A DNA stretch of 64,000 bases from Polyangiaceae bacterium (lineage in GTDB: Bacteria; Myxococcota_A; Polyangia; Polyangiales; Polyangiaceae): contig JANRKO010000031.1 of NCBI GenBank assembly GCA_033763455.1, forward strand, positions 1 to 64,000, read 5' to 3'. Under the pieces are notes generated by a model. It was not told where the DNA came from and searched no databases. It saw nothing but the letters and a program-made list of their open reading frames with translations. A program made the position numbers and the translations under genes. How positions within the stretch are numbered: position 1 is the stretch's first letter; each line of letters opens with the position of its first letter. Shown here piece by piece: positions 45,594 to 51,019 of the stretch.

Positions 45594-45836
45594 ATGCCCA
45601 AGGCGAAGGTAGCTATCACGTTGGAACGCTCTACATTGGAGCGTTTAGACCGGCTGGTGGAAAGGGCGCGGTTCCTCAACCGTAGCCAGGCGGTCGAGAT
45701 CGCGGTGGAAGAGAAACTCGCGCGGTTAGAGCGAAGTCGGCTCGCCGAAGAATGTGCCAAGCTCGATCCTACGGAAGAGCGGGCTCTCGCCAATTTGGGT
45801 TGGGAAGCAGACGGTGAAGCGTGGCCGGAATACTGA
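45594..45836 (+). CDS. Ribbon-helix-helix antitoxin
   Basis: KVAITL...LDRLV...NRSQAVE RHH pattern; acidic C-terminus; overlaps the toxin gene. Confidence 0.85.
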   Translation: MPKAKVAITLERSTLERLDRLVERARFLNRSQAVEIAVEEKLARLERSRLAEECAKLDPTEERALANLGWEADGEAWPEY

Positions 45837-46159
45837 GGGGCGAGCTGCGATGGGCAGACCTTGATCCGACGCGTGGGCGTGAACAATCAGGTCTTCGGCC
45901 CGTGCTGATCTTGAGTCATGACGTTTTCAACGCGCGCTCGGGGACCGTTATCGCAATGGCTCTTACGAGCCAGCCTCAGCGTGCCGGGTTTCCTTTGACG
46001 CTGGAGCCGACGAGCTCGAAGCTAAAGAAGCCATCGTGGTTGAAGATCAGCCAGATCCGTACACTCTCCGTGGAACGTATCGGGAAACGGCTGGGGCGAC
46101 TGTCTGCGGAGGAGCTCAGCCAAGCCGTCGAAGGGCTCAATGAGATCATCGGCGCATGA
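45821..46159 (+). CDS. mazF: PemK/MazF family endoribonuclease toxin
   Basis: RGE..WADLDPTRGREQ.G.RPVLILS, SQIRTLS.ERI. Confidence 0.92.
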   Translation: MAGILRGELRWADLDPTRGREQSGLRPVLILSHDVFNARSGTVIAMALTSQPQRAGFPLTLEPTSSKLKKPSWLKISQIRTLSVERIGKRLGRLSAEELSQAVEGLNEIIGA

Positions 46160-47160: not shown

Positions 47161-48267
47161 CTATGGCTCCGGCGCCCAGTTCGGGTTGCGGTAGTCCGCG
47201 TCCGCAGGCGTGACCAAACAAGGCACGCTCCCGACAGCTCGCGAAGTTACGGCGATCCGCGCAAGATTGTTCGCCGTATCGATTCGCTCATACGCGAGCA
47301 CATCCACTGTGGCCCACGCAGGCTTGGCTAAGCTAAAGGGTTCCTGCGGAGTTACGCGCCGGCCGTCGCACGGGGCAGTAGCCGTGCCATAAGGGGTCGT
47401 CCAAATAGACGCACCTTCTGCCGCAAAGCCCGTGCTGCAATTCACCGAGTAGGCGACCTCGCGACCGTCGGGCGAAACAGCAGGCATCTTGATGGTGGTG
47501 GTCGAATTCTGAACCACGGGCCTTATCGCCAGGTTATCAAGCCGAGCAGCGTTAAGCTCGTTGTTTCGATCGAACAGAACCTCCTCACCGTCAGCGCTGA
47601 ATTCAGGCCAGAAATAAGCATTAAAGGTATCGAGACCGGTGGCAATCAGGCGCTCGCCGAGGCCATCCACACCGATAACGTAAACCGACGCCCCACTGTG
47701 AAACGCGATGAACCTGCCATCGCGCGAGAAGCCTGCCTGATCCGCCCCCTCCGGTCGCGACGTGAGCTGGCTTAAGCTGCCCGATGCCAGGTGCAGAAGG
47801 AAAATTTGCGGTTGGCCGTTCATGTCCGAGGTAAACACCAGCGACGCCCCGTCAGGTGAAAAGTTCGGCTCCGTTTCAGCGCTCGGGTAGTCCGTGACGC
47901 GCACGCGCTCGCTTCCATCGGCCCGAGAAATGAAAATGTCGCGATTGAAACCTAATGCGTCCGAATCGTACGCGATGCGCCGCGCGAGTATTTGCGCGCT
48001 GACACCACACTCTTGAGATGTCGCCGGCACGGAGGTGATACCCGATGGCGTGGGGCCAGGGCCCGCAGCGTTCGCCTTTCCACCGACGGCCGAGTTAACT
48101 TTGCCACCTGAGGGGCTGCCCGGGCTGGGCCCTCCCGGGGAGTTCAATGCCCCACCCGAGCCAGTGACAGCTGTATTCGCACCTGGCTCTGCTTCAATGT
48201 TTGTGGCACCGCCGCAGGCAGCAGCAAAAAGCGAGCTGAATATGATGGCGCAATATCTAAGCTTCAT
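47161..48267 (-). CDS. TolB-like (PD40 repeat) beta-propeller lipoprotein
   Basis: Lipobox AAAC; repeated PNFSPDG..LVF, FSRDG, SPDGREVAY motifs. Confidence 0.85.
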   Translation of the reverse strand: MKLRYCAIIFSSLFAAACGGATNIEAEPGANTAVTGSGGALNSPGGPSPGSPSGGKVNSAVGGKANAAGPGPTPSGITSVPATSQECGVSAQILARRIAYDSDALGFNRDIFISRADGSERVRVTDYPSAETEPNFSPDGASLVFTSDMNGQPQIFLLHLASGSLSQLTSRPEGADQAGFSRDGRFIAFHSGASVYVIGVDGLGERLIATGLDTFNAYFWPEFSADGEEVLFDRNNELNAARLDNLAIRPVVQNSTTTIKMPAVSPDGREVAYSVNCSTGFAAEGASIWTTPYGTATAPCDGRRVTPQEPFSLAKPAWATVDVLAYERIDTANNLARIAVTSRAVGSVPCLVTPADADYRNPNWAPEP

Positions 48268-48454
48268 TGGTGTGCTCCCTCCGAACGTGTTTGGGAATGT
48301 CCAATATAGCATGCTCCAACAACGATATCAGGCAGGAAAAAACCAATGAAACTGTGCAGCAAGATCTGTGGACCTCTAGGGGCAACCCTAGTGTCGGCTC
48401 GGGAGCGCACAACCTCGGTAAGTTCGGCGGCTATACGCTTGAGGTTCTGTGGCT

Positions 48455-49648
48455 TCAGTGTTCCTTGGCGTCGACCCTTGTGGTGGCAATCTTTCGAATG
48501 TCGTCGATCCCGTACCGGAGCGCAGCGATGCGTTCGAGTCCGAAGCCCGCGCCGAGAGCGGTTCGTCTAGCGGTTGCGCCAAGCGCCTGCAGCACCCACG
48601 GAGCGTATTCGCCCAGGGCGATCACTTCGGACCAATCGTCTTTCTCGCGCACGTCGATGCTGAAGGCACGGCTGCACATTGGGTAGGACGTTGGCGAGAC
48701 ACGCACCTCGCGGCCTGGCAGCACGTTATCTAGCGCTTTCAAGAGGCGTCCCGCGAGCCAGAAACCGTCGATCGTGTCTTTGTCGTCGATCGCGAAGAGC
48801 TCGAGCTGGTGGAACGCTTCGAGATGCGTCGCGCTTTCTTTCTCCTTGCGATAGACCTTGCCAGACGCCCACAACCGCTGCGGCGAACCGTTGAGTTTGA
48901 TCGTTGTCAACAGCGGTAGCGTCAGGTCGTAGCGCAACACGTGCTCGCCAGAGATGCGTTGCAGCGCTGATCGCTCGATGTAAACGGCGTCTCCACCAAG
49001 CGCTTTTTCCGTTGCGTCGAGGTCGAGGTCTTCAGGTACCTCGACACGCGTGAAACCAGGGAATGCTTCGTTGATCGCCGCGAGAGTCAGCGCCACCGGA
49101 TTTCCTGCGATGTCGCTGAGGCGTGGCCGCGCGAGCAGCTCGATGATACTAGTCGGCAAGTCGCCGGGGATTTTTAGATCTCGTTGCTCTTCCATTTCTA
49201 TTTCCTTTCGCAGCTTCTCCCGGATACGCTGCAAACGTTTGCGTTCCGTGGCGGACCCGATTTGTAGACCACCGTAGTAGTGCGCTTCGCAAAGTTGGCG
49301 TTCTTCGCGACTGAGTGTCAGCAGTGCGCGAGACAGAAGGCGTTGCTGCGCCTCCGTCCACCGCGTTTCGTCCTCGTCGAGGAATGGCGGCGTTTCGGCG
49401 TCATGGAAATCGACCCACTGCGCACGGCTGCGTTTCTTGCGGTTGAGCGCAGTCGTTACGACGATGCGGCGCAGCCAGCCTGGAAAGGCGCGATCCTCCT
49501 GGAGCTGCGCAAGGCGGCGAAACGCCGTGGCGTACGCGTCCTGAACGACATCGCGGGCATCACTCTCGCGGCGCACGATACGCCACGCAACCGCATACGC
49601 CATTGCGTAAGTGGCACGTACGTGCGTTTCGAAATCCGCGAGCTCCAT
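48455..49648 (-). CDS. ECF sigma factor fused to a PheRS-alpha-like class II aaRS catalytic domain
   Basis: N-terminal DARDVVQDAY, FPGWLRRIV, KRLQRIREKLR; C-terminal motif 2 GKVYRKE...THLEAFHQLE and motif 3 GAGFGLERIAALRYGIDDIR in one uninterrupted ORF. Confidence 0.85.
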   Translation of the reverse strand: MELADFETHVRATYAMAYAVAWRIVRRESDARDVVQDAYATAFRRLAQLQEDRAFPGWLRRIVVTTALNRKKRSRAQWVDFHDAETPPFLDEDETRWTEAQQRLLSRALLTLSREERQLCEAHYYGGLQIGSATERKRLQRIREKLRKEIEMEEQRDLKIPGDLPTSIIELLARPRLSDIAGNPVALTLAAINEAFPGFTRVEVPEDLDLDATEKALGGDAVYIERSALQRISGEHVLRYDLTLPLLTTIKLNGSPQRLWASGKVYRKEKESATHLEAFHQLELFAIDDKDTIDGFWLAGRLLKALDNVLPGREVRVSPTSYPMCSRAFSIDVREKDDWSEVIALGEYAPWVLQALGATARRTALGAGFGLERIAALRYGIDDIRKIATTRVDAKEH

Positions 49649-49790
49649 GCCCTAAGGACACAAGCTCCGGCTCAGTGTGACAATCTTTTTCGGACCCGAT
49701 AGCTGCAGCGCCATCGAAACCCCGCAGGCAATCCCGAGCTTACATTGCTCCAACTTGCACCCGGGAGCCGAGTCGAGCTAGCGACAGTCC

Positions 49791-49855: not shown

Positions 49856-51019
49856 GTGAAGAGGCAGCAGGAATCAGCGCTGAGGGCAGATTTGGCCAAG
49901 AAGCTAGTGCTCTTGGCCGGGCCACGCCAAGTTGGAAAAACAACCCTCTCCCGGTCCTTGAGTCCCCACCACTCCTATCTGAACTACGATAGTTCTGAGG
50001 ATCGGAGGTTGCTCACAGCCAAGGAGTGGGATCGTGACGTTTCGCTCGTGATCTTTGACGAACTCCACAAGATGCGAAAATGGAAAACTTGGCTCAAAGG
50101 TATCTATGACACTGAAGGGATCCCCCCGGGGATCCTGGTTACCGGTTCCGCGCACCTTGAGGTATTCCGTCGCGGGGGCGACTCGTTGGCAGGTCGCTAC
50201 TTCCTTCACCGTTTGCATCCATTTACCGTTCGTGAGCTTGGGCGACAGTTCGAGGCAGAGGATGCACTAGAGCGCATCCTCACGGTTGGAGGGTTTCCCG
50301 AGCCTTTCCTGAATGGGGACGAACAATATGCCCGGCGCTGGCGAAGAAGCCATCTGGACGTGATTCTGCGGCAGGATCTGCTGGATCTAGAGAAGGTGCG
50401 AGAAATTCGAAGCATCGAGGTTCTGGTCGAGTTGCTGCTCCTGCGAGTAGGCTCGACGGTATCATTGAGTTCACTCGCACGGGACTTGCAGACGTCAGCA
50501 CACACTGTAAAGCATTGGCTACAGATCCTCGAAAGCCTGTACGTCCTATTTCCCGTTCGTCCGTACCATCACAACATCGCGCGAAGCCTGCTCAAGGAAT
50601 CAAAGTACTACTTCTACGACACTGGCGCGGTAGCTGACGCCGGGGCGGACCCGGGTGCGGTGCTTGAAAATGCTGTTGCGTGCGCGCTCCTTCGGGAACT
50701 TCACCTTGCCGAAGATCTCACCGGGAAAAAGGCGCAACTCTGCTTTCTGCGCGACAAAGAGAAGCGCGAAGTAGACTTTCTCCCAGTGCTCGATAAGAAG
50801 CCGCGTGAGCTTGTGGAGGTGAAGCTCAATGATGCAACTTTCTCGAAATCATTGCTCTATTTTCAAGATTTGTTGCCTACGGTGCCCGCAAGGCAGGTGG
50901 TAGGCGGCCTCAAGCAAGCCAAGGGCAGGGCGGAGCGCAACGCGCGTATGGTGCCGGCCGCCAAGTACCTGGAGGCACTTTCTTTTGTTTCGCCCAAGCT
51001 CCCCGCAACGTCACCGTAG
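49856..51019 (+). CDS. AAA_14 ATPase / DUF4143 protein with C-terminal PD-(D/E)XK-like motif
   Basis: GPRQVGKT, IFDELHK, VTGS, DSLAGR, GGFPE, KYYFYDTG, EVDF...VEVK. Confidence 0.92.
   Translation: MKRQQESALRADLAKKLVLLAGPRQVGKTTLSRSLSPHHSYLNYDSSEDRRLLTAKEWDRDVSLVIFDELHKMRKWKTWLKGIYDTEGIPPGILVTGSAHLEVFRRGGDSLAGRYFLHRLHPFTVRELGRQFEAEDALERILTVGGFPEPFLNGDEQYARRWRRSHLDVILRQDLLDLEKVREIRSIEVLVELLLLRVGSTVSLSSLARDLQTSAHTVKHWLQILESLYVLFPVRPYHHNIARSLLKESKYYFYDTGAVADAGADPGAVLENAVACALLRELHLAEDLTGKKAQLCFLRDKEKREVDFLPVLDKKPRELVEVKLNDATFSKSLLYFQDLLPTVPARQVVGGLKQAKGRAERNARMVPAAKYLEALSFVSPKLPATSP

Follow-up and report, generated by a model that had tools for sequence, protein, structure and literature searches.

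How is a sigma factor controlled when no anti-sigma gene lies beside it and its own polypeptide runs on into what looks like the catalytic core of a tRNA synthetase? The question is raised by a minus-strand gene in a 64,000-nucleotide stretch of DNA from a Polyangiaceae bacterium (assembly GCA_033763455.1, contig JANRKO010000031.1, positions 1 to 64,000; hereafter the window, meaning this whole stretch). An initial annotation had read the gene as one continuous open reading frame (ORF) of 397 amino acids (aa) encoding an extracytoplasmic function (ECF) sigma factor fused to a domain resembling phenylalanyl-tRNA synthetase (PheRS). The reading frame was borne out, and the protein is an ECF-type sigma factor followed by a C-terminal catalytic core derived from the alpha chain of bacterial PheRS. 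ECF sigma factors with fused regulatory domains are already known, and those that carry a sensor domain are regarded as the sigma-factor version of one-component systems; what sets this gene apart is the PheRS-like extension. To our knowledge, the extensions of known ECF sigma factors are small ligand-binding or redox domains. In this gene the sigma part is extended by an aminoacyl-tRNA synthetase catalytic core, in which the residues that bind ATP and the amino acid are kept across several phyla.

Architecture and authenticity of the fusion

Two Pfam families were found in the protein, and they are the two that the initial annotation had anticipated. Sigma70_r2 spans residues 10-75 with 36.4 bits (E 4.6e-9), above its cut-off of 24, and tRNA-synt_2d spans residues 222-393 with 91.8 bits (E 6.4e-26), above its cut-off of 19.8. 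The scan returned no other family, and neither an anticodon-binding domain, which the annotation had likewise called absent, nor the N-terminal tRNA-binding arm of PheRS (Phe_tRNA-synt_N) gave a Pfam match. Among the NCBIfam models, the generic ECF model sigma70-ECF (TIGR02937) is passed with 43.9 bits at a cut-off of 42.9, the PheS equivalog model (TIGR00468) is matched with 88.9 bits, below its cut-off of 237.45, and the C-terminal domain matches NF051887, "PheS-related mystery ligase SrmL", with E 8.4e-23 and 81 bits, below the cut-off of 300. The only sigma regions present are 2 and 4, separated by a 23-residue linker of low confidence; regions 1.1 and 3 are absent.

The closest structures in the Protein Data Bank (PDB) by sequence are bacterial PheRS alpha chains, the best being 6p8t_C (E 4.3e-14). 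An AlphaFold2 model of the fusion protein, made from a 70-sequence alignment, has a mean predicted local distance difference test score (pLDDT) of 89.9 and a predicted template modeling score (pTM) of 0.70, with most of the C-terminal domain at pLDDT 93-98. In the Foldseek comparison, too, PheRS alpha chains lead the list (E. coli 6oz5_A, for instance, with a root-mean-square deviation (rmsd) of 2.4 A over 212 columns and a TM of 0.76), ahead of PylRS and SepRS, so the class II synthetase fold proposed for the C-terminal region holds.

A gene of this kind could also arise as an assembly chimera or a gene-calling artifact that unites a sigma gene with a fragment of pheS, and the annotation had allowed that the fusion might occur in no other genome. 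Full-length homologs were found in other genomes. Both PF01409 and PF04542 are present, in the same order, in 117 of the 120 best matches from a collection of 5.8 billion proteins; these come from different sources, most are 419-432 aa long, and the remaining three have PF01409 with or without region 4. When one genome per species was scanned, 80 loci that encode the fusion were found, in four phylum-level groups and in some cases on contigs of more than 1 Mb. In addition, the AlphaFold2 model is a single confident one in which a helix passes unbroken across the domain junction. From public sequencing runs, one DNA-type run with 15% of the sampled words gave contig pieces 48300-48392 and 49282-49528, neither of which crosses that junction. 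Because the fusion recurs in so many independent assemblies, we regard the chimera as refuted and leave it a practically negligible chance.

The family reaches well beyond the closest matches. An exhaustive phmmer search of 1.84 billion representatives gave 54 matches at E <= 1e-30 and 204 at E <= 1e-10, with full-length fusions of 409-433 aa still found at 23-30% identity, and both domains are present in all 15 scanned members of near-full length (409-433 aa). By the names of their metagenome-assembled genomes (MAGs), the carriers of the 80 loci are Polyangiaceae or Myxococcales; Acidobacteriota, mostly Vicinamibacterales but also Bryobacterales and Solibacteraceae; Planctomycetota and Phycisphaeraceae; and Steroidobacteraceae. 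A protein atlas holds three clusters with the fusion architecture (57, 92, and 152 members), all under generic sigma-factor names. In the window's own taxonomic family the gene is found in four of 121 genomes, the window's genome counted, and in neither of the two other genomes of the same genus. The canonical synthetase genes of the window's genome lie on other contigs, pheS on C49:35136-35906 (308.9 bits) and pheT on C74:42098-44593 (682.7 bits), in keeping with the earlier statement that no pheT is at this locus; the two genes may truly lie apart, or a break in the assembly may have parted C49 from C74.

Full-text literature searches, with subscription journals outside their scope, returned no description of any sigma-synthetase fusion, which agrees with the annotation's remark that it knew of no characterized example. 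Synthetase terms are absent from the main text of the 2021 re-classification of ECF sigma factors, and in the accessible part of its supplement (PMC7826278) all 16 mentions of "tRNA" concern neighboring genes or genetic-context themes and none a fusion. A 2022 review of non-canonical ECFs likewise has none of the terms sought in it. The family is widespread and uncharacterized, and it is common in soil Acidobacteriota and in Polyangiaceae that are known from metagenome-assembled genomes only.

Several relatives depart from the basic form. P0186 (596 aa) carries a GNAT acetyltransferase domain after the PheRS-like domain, P0230 (579 aa) is longer at its C-terminus by about 160 residues that match no Pfam family, and P0142 (523 aa) has an N-terminal extension of about 100 aa. 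Many matches with PF01409 only are exactly 246 aa long, the length of the stretch that begins at the conserved Met of "EIEM" and ends at the C-terminus (e.g., P0271-P0273), and most of them lie on contigs of 1-2 kb; P0275 is on a 35.8-kb contig and P0362 (263 aa) on a 103-kb contig. We considered free-standing PheRS-like genes and, from the length and the short contigs, read these matches as gene calls on cut contigs that start at the "EIEM" Met, a reading that is unproved. An internal start may also produce a free PheRS-like domain. Two further proteins, P0260 (584 aa) and P0268 (482 aa), have N-terminal parts that are 35-39% identical to the window's sigma part and other C-terminal regions, with WG_beta_rep in P0260.

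The conserved core and the amino acid pocket

Residue conservation was read from 70 family members aligned with four PheS sequences, one of them from the window's genome (the main elements are located in Table 1). The residues for ATP and for the alpha-amino acid are kept down to 23% identity, and the pocket for the phenylalanine side chain is altered. The motif 2 arginine, R267, is present in all 70 members, F279 in 69, H275 in 58, and H280 in 66, and in motif 3 the counts are 62 for G366, 65 for G368, 69 for G370, 64 for E372, and 68 for R373. Going by PheRS structures, we take R267, F279, H275, G368, G370, E372, and R373 to be ATP-binding residues, while T243 (63/70, with serine in seven more), Q281 (65/70), and E283 (60/70, with aspartate in ten more) presumably hold the alpha-amino and carboxyl groups. 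R239, the arginine of the LRxxxT strand, is invariant (70/70). The claim that motifs 2 and 3 are PheRS-like and retain both arginines, R267 and R373, therefore stands.

The departures from PheRS that the initial annotation had listed are also confirmed against the four PheS sequences: LRYDLT in place of LRTHTS at 238-243, YPM in place of FPF at 322-324, and EVIALG in place of E(V/I)LGCG at 341-346. Position 241 is mostly acidic across the family (D in 51 of 70 members, E in 8, H in 4). Along the rebuilt strand, position 322 is Y in 48 members and F in 14, 323 is P in 56, 324 is M in 41 and F in 6, and 325 is C in 49; FPF(T/V) is found in all four PheS references. G366 replaces the Ala of PheS GFAFG, a position that we take to be the pocket-floor alanine (A294 in E. 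coli, counted on a sequence alignment with the PheRS chain). To judge from this pattern of residues kept and changed, the domain very probably still binds ATP together with an alpha-amino-acid-like ligand other than phenylalanine. A minority of members, taken as the most divergent, keep PheS-like residues at several pocket positions, which suggests that the fusion started with a PheS-like pocket and altered it later.

A shared promoter, its targets, and the gene neighborhood

We collected about 300 nt before the estimated start at 73 loci and the window, 74 regions in all, and enumerated spaced dyads; L009, L063, L070, L071, L073, L079, and L082 were left out as partial matches. The dyad GTCAC-N16-TGTC occurs in 71 of the 74 upstream regions, the window included, and the best dyad in five shuffled sets reached only 5-6. 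The extended consensus, TGTCACA ... GTGTC(T/C)TT, is of ECF type. The loci without the exact dyad, L012, L058, and L064, still have GTCACA; in the two of them from Planctomycetota this element is where it should be, followed by a variant -10. At a threshold of 18 bits, a weight matrix finds a match in 72 of the 80 loci, always just upstream of the gene except for one extra match in L003, and the eight loci without a match include the truncated copies L009, L063, L071, and L082. The start codon lies close behind the -10 element: in 69 loci the first in-frame start codon follows TGTC at a median distance of 19 nt, with an interquartile range of 12-29, and in the window the ATG at 49648 begins 8 nt after TGTC. 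Because of this closeness, the mRNAs are probably leaderless or have very short leaders, counted from a putative transcription start.

The protein has the marks of an ECF (group 4) factor in its region 2, in its lack of regions 1.1 and 3, and in the two-block promoter upstream; in the window's copy region 4 is truncated, with its recognition helix kept. We infer that the fusion protein itself reads the GTCAC-N16-TGTC promoter.

A search for other sites pointed back to the gene. In the window's genome (6.56 Mb), the matrix scores 23.0 at the gene's own promoter and 16.9 at the next site, with a maximum of 18.0 in the reversed-genome control, and over spacers of 13-19 nt the counts are not above control save for spacer 17 (3 against 0). 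A stricter pattern gave seven matches in five other carrier genomes, four of which are the genes' own promoters, and six matches when reversed; in a complete 5.2-Mb chromosome the sole match is the promoter of the gene itself. The other three matches are unconvincing as targets. Two of them point at the end of a convergent gene, and the third, in L084, lies 13 nt upstream of a 297-aa ORF (a secreted protein by eye) and is without the extended consensus. On these scans, the only recognizable target of the promoter motif is the gene itself. In the window the promoter sits inside the 207-nt gap between the sigma gene and a divergent ATPase gene with AAA_14 and DUF4143 domains (49856-51019, plus strand).

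The neighborhood offers no constant partner. No neighbor is conserved family-wide in the 80 loci, where neighbor ORFs were called crudely as greedy longest ORFs, so that the sigma gene was lost to antisense ORFs in about 19 loci and cluster 1 consists of such shadows. No anti-sigma factor stands beside the window's gene, as the annotation had stated; by Pfam the neighbors are a PD40 beta-propeller protein and the AAA_14/DUF4143 ATPase. The PD40 (WD40-like beta-propeller) gene (47161-48312, minus strand) follows about 140-190 nt downstream on the same strand, and the N-terminus of its product was read as a lipoprotein signal. Since no terminator-like site was found between the two genes, co-transcription is possible and read-through from the sigma gene into the PD40 gene may occur; a weak sigma-70-like promoter match precedes the PD40 gene, which is not a conserved neighbor elsewhere.

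Other recurrent neighbors were taken as local synteny and rejected as partners, none of them being family-wide. ADOP-type duplicated permeases (MacB_PCD + FtsX, about 800-1000 aa) occur in the flanks of 18 of the 80 loci with varying position and orientation. Such permeases are very abundant in Acidobacteria, and their proximity to the sigma gene may be chance. In one Acidobacteriota sub-clade (8-9 loci; L013-L018, L024, L033) an ATP-dependent DNA ligase gene (DNA_ligase_A_M/C) lies downstream on the same strand, 84-1216 nt from the sigma gene in the seven loci where the latter was placed, and is followed by an Lhr-type helicase. The window also holds a type II toxin-antitoxin pair (45594-46159, plus strand), about 2.3 kb from the sigma gene, in which an RHH_1 gene (E 2.6e-6) overlaps one for a PemK/MazF-like toxin (E 9e-29).

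Table 1. Features of the sigma-synthetase fusion gene and its promoter in the window, with permease genes near the sigma gene at two other loci. AF2, AlphaFold2.
Feature	Position	Strand	Basis
Whole gene: 397-aa ECF-type sigma factor + PheRS-alpha-like domain (stop codon 48455-48457)	48455..49648	(-)	ORF, translation, Pfam
Sigma region 2, residues 1-75, three helices, without the N-terminal helix of other members	49424..49648	(-)	Pfam, AF2, alignment
Sigma2-sigma4 linker, residues 76-98, predicted disordered	49355..49423	(-)	pLDDT 51-68, no secondary structure
Truncated sigma region 4, residues 99-155	49184..49354	(-)	alignment gap, AF2, no Pfam region-4 match
PheRS-alpha-like class II catalytic core, residues 160-397	48458..49171	(-)	Pfam, AF2 pLDDT, Foldseek, PDB sequence match
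LRYDLT (238-243), PheS has LRTHTS	48920..48937	(-)	alignment
Motif 2 region G263-E283 (GKVYR ... ATH ... FHQLE)	48800..48862	(-)	conservation in 70 members
Rebuilt pocket strand YPMC (322-325), PheS has FPF(T/V)	48674..48685	(-)	alignment
Motif 3, G366-R373	48530..48553	(-)	conservation in 70 members
-35 element TGTCACA, core GTCAC 49681-49677	49676..49682	(-)	sequence, family dyad, matrix score 23.0
-10 element GTGTCCTT, core TGTC 49660-49657	49654..49661	(-)	sequence, family dyad
ADOP-type permease examples	L048:4394-7051, L028:9211-11976	(-), (-)	near sigma gene

The sigma part, its control, and known systems

The initial annotation had placed ECF regions 2 and 4 in about the first 150 residues. 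Region 2 stands on its Pfam match, but region 4 is not intact, nine residues of the first helix of its helix-turn-helix (HTH) being gone. The AlphaFold2 model has sigma-2 helices at 3-25, 28-44, and 52-74 (pLDDT 90-97) and only three helices in sigma-4 (99-109, 114-126, and 133-155), whereas the model of the canonical member P0005 has an extra sigma-2 helix at 7-15 and sigma-4 helices at 115-125, 130-140, 146-153, and 157-184. The deletion junction lies between residues 126 and 127 (about 49271/49270), and the nine-column gap, which is exactly the first HTH helix, is found only in P0001, P0002, and P0003 (3 of 70), a trio that is also about 23 residues shorter at the N-terminus. P0002 and P0003 are the nearest relatives of the window's protein, at 80% and 78% identity. 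Canonical members match Sigma70_r4_2 (P0154 with 58.5 bits, P0177 with 54.7 bits), and the window's protein gives no Pfam match to region 4 at E <= 0.1. Its recognition helix, RKRLQRIR, is kept and extended, and this helix and the onward linker helix ("KLRKEIEM-E") are invariant in 20 aligned sequences. In a quick maximum-likelihood tree of 70 sequences the trio forms one clade (SH-aLRT 100) nested in a Polyangiaceae-type group, with P0005, P0010, P0042, and P0046 as sister (support 83), and the deletion is, on this nesting, a single derived event. A metagenome scan for the DNA of P0002 and P0003 returned only two more distant loci.

These losses may have weakened or altered -35 recognition in the window's sub-clade, and they raise the possibility that the window's copy is a sigma factor in decay, in which the sigma-2 and sigma-4 deletions would leave the protein unable to recognize promoters and the gene would persist, if at all, as a relic or for the sake of its PheRS-like domain. 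Both the missing HTH helix and the shorter N-terminus are derived within one clade, the Pfam match to region 4 is gone, and copies in decay do exist elsewhere. One of them, L009:7956-9032 (plus strand; P0094), sits in the same Polyangiaceae MAG as the full-length copy L006, keeps sigma-4 and the PheRS-like domain without sigma-2 or a promoter, and has motif 2 changes (GKTHR, and ETR for ATH); it is probably a decaying paralogue. Another, L063:7944-9130 (plus strand), is broken in two where a frameshift falls at the conserved ENPV motif. It lacks a promoter match and is either a pseudogene or an assembly indel error. The window's copy, however, has an open reading frame and has kept its promoter intact at a score of 23.0, where the decaying copies elsewhere have lost theirs. 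The trio members remain 78-80% identical, with sigma-2, the recognition helix, and the linker helix conserved; the rest of the sigma part, as read by eye from the alignment, is also well conserved among them, which argues against free decay. We therefore consider decay improbable.

The reading that we favor, at about an even chance of being right, is a positively autoregulated single-gene sigma circuit gated by a ligand or by an adenylate. The sigma part would steer RNA polymerase to the promoter of its own gene, which would thereby raise its own expression from a leaderless or nearly leaderless mRNA. The PheRS-like domain would bind ATP and an amino-acid-like ligand other than phenylalanine, and may form an acyl-adenylate, and the ligand state of this domain would switch the sigma part in cis. 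Since an anti-sigma factor is missing, the control has to be internal, and the PheRS-like domain, with its conserved ATP and amino acid site, is the sole candidate. Because the gene is its only recognizable target, the main output would be the fusion protein itself, plus any read-through into the downstream PD40 lipoprotein gene; "trigger enzymes" such as BirA follow a similar logic. The one-component sigma factor with a synthetase-like sensor that the initial annotation proposed is supported to this extent: the fusion is conserved, an anti-sigma factor is absent, the ATP and amino acid residues are kept, and the phenylalanine pocket is changed, so a one-component sigma factor that binds ATP and a non-phenylalanine ligand fits. 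Its second part, gating of the sigma part by the C-terminal domain, we infer by analogy. Predicted docking between the PheRS-like part (159-397) and the sigma part (1-158), made without controls, scored 0.31, 0.31, and 0.20 against a mark of 0.32, which speaks neither for nor against gating. The annotation's other suggestion, that the domain aminoacylates a protein in the manner of EpmA, finds neither support nor contradiction in these data.

Several points weigh against this reading. The acidic pair of the PheS strand FPFxEPSxE is mostly lost, position 326 being A in 23 members, S in 14, and E in 7, and position 330 S in 35, E in 16, and D in 7. These glutamates are possible ligands of the catalytic metal in PheRS; if they do bind it, adenylate synthesis may have been lost, leaving a domain that binds its ligand only. 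Without the first HTH helix and a Pfam match to region 4, the window's copy may be a poor sigma factor. No RNA-type run with the window's words is listed among the public sequencing runs searched. The claim of a self-only target is limited by the window's genome being 93.7% complete, by a matrix built from 69 sequences of which the window's own site is one, and by the reach of matrix and pattern scans, which catch near-consensus sites and miss weaker or differently spaced promoters.

One rival reading is a pure sensor, a pseudo-enzyme that would have given up catalysis and, much as HisZ or GCN2's HisRS-like domain does, would only bind ATP, an amino acid, or uncharged tRNA, and thereby free or block the sigma part, with a regulon of weaker promoters that the scans missed. 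The replacement of both FPFxEPSxE acids in most members speaks for it, as do the missing tRNA-binding arm, anticodon-binding domain, and anti-sigma factor. However, the motif 2 and 3 arginines, FHQ, and GxGLER are near-invariant to 23% identity, which is more than binding alone usually keeps, and no additional near-consensus promoters were found in six genomes. A pure sensor thus seems possible, though on the unlikely side.

The same catalytic residues could instead serve an enzyme delivered to the transcription machinery, the sigma part tethering an active ligase that modifies the polymerase, the sigma factor, nascent RNA, or the initiating nucleotide (by lysine aminoacylation, an adenylate, or diadenosine tetraphosphate, Ap4A). 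Besides the conservation of these residues, one branch appends a GNAT acyltransferase domain (P0186), and forms with sigma-4 and the PheRS-like domain but without sigma-2 exist (P0221, P0232, P0094). Yet the sigma-2-less copy L009, which has no promoter and a changed motif 2, looks like decay rather than new function, and we hold this alternative to be highly improbable.

The favored circuit can also be put in a stronger form, which we think possible at well below an even chance: a "trigger-enzyme sigma factor", in which an active adenylate-forming ligase with a substrate other than phenylalanine would be joined to its own sigma factor, acting only on its own promoter, so that the substrate sets off a self-amplifying burst of the enzyme from a leaderless mRNA. 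A single polypeptide would then combine the roles of sensor, regulator, and output. In a still bolder variant the ligase may act at the initiation complex, aminoacylating the polymerase or sigma, or supplying the adenylate or Ap4A as the initiating nucleotide.

If the domain of the favored circuit senses or processes an amino acid or its adenylate, amino acid or energy status would feed directly into promoter choice. The promoter accompanies the gene from phylum to phylum, and the gene itself has a patchy distribution, which together suggest a self-contained, self-activating cassette. A portable self-promoter without any other recognizable target would make this cassette a minimal one, instructive about how regulatory circuits evolve and perhaps usable in synthetic biology as an orthogonal part.

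Among known systems, the closest layouts are those of ECF41 and ECF42. In both groups C-terminal extensions switch the sigma part, and the ECF42 extension contains TPR. The window's gene shares the general layout, an extension with no anti-sigma factor nearby, and differs in the type of extension, tRNA-synt_2d. As in the window's family, the ECF41 factors (M. tuberculosis SigJ; Ecf41 of Rhodobacter sphaeroides and Bacillus licheniformis) have a domain fused after sigma-4 and no anti-sigma factor. According to the accessible part of PMC7826278, the ECF41 -35 element is TGTCACA, as here, and the regulon is very small in both, ECF41 controlling "exclusively" its own gene and one neighboring gene. 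The same source gives ECF41 a SnoaL-like extension, in contrast to the PheRS-alpha core of about 240 aa, and a -10 of CGTC where the window's family has TGTC(Y)T; ECF41 also controls a neighboring gene, whereas the window's family has no conserved neighbor. The promoter of ECF288 is closer still, predicted in the accessible part of PMC7826278 as "TGTCACA in -35 and TGTCTAAT in -10", which is near-identical to ours, and this group also has no anti-sigma factor and a C-terminal extension. In that description, however, ECF288 comes entirely (100%) from Firmicutes and its extension is Cys-rich and about 100 aa long, whereas the present family belongs to Myxococcota, Acidobacteriota, Planctomycetota, and Steroidobacteraceae and has a PheRS-like extension of about 240 aa.

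On the synthetase side, PheS shares with the window's domain the class II core fold (the domain and the E. coli protein superpose with an rmsd of 2.4 A), the motif 2 and 3 arginines, and FHQxE, and differs in its N-terminal tRNA-binding arm, its FPF(T/V) pocket, its pocket-floor Ala, and the two Glu of FPFxEPSxE. SrmL (NF051887) is likewise a PheS-derived paralogue of unknown function; the window's protein, being below the cut-off, is no member, and the word SrmL does not occur in the papers listed by a full-text search.

For the proposed logic the nearest analogues lie outside sigma factors and PheRS. HisZ, and GCN2 with its HisRS-like domain, show how a synthetase paralogue can be turned into a sensor of a ligand or of tRNA that regulates another activity. 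Their synthetase parts derive from HisRS and have no sigma fusion, whereas the window's domain derives from PheRS. BirA, the biotin-protein ligase that is also the bio repressor, has a class-II-fold domain whose biotinyl-AMP intermediate decides DNA binding, and so it combines a nucleic-acid-targeting domain with an adenylate-forming class II-like domain, much as the favored circuit would. BirA differs in that its targeting domain is a winged-helix repressor and not a sigma factor, and the two have no sequence relationship, so that the comparison is an analogy only. If the PheRS-like domain does sense or process an amino acid or an adenylate, the fusion would give bacteria a counterpart of GCN2, and sigma factors a counterpart of BirA.

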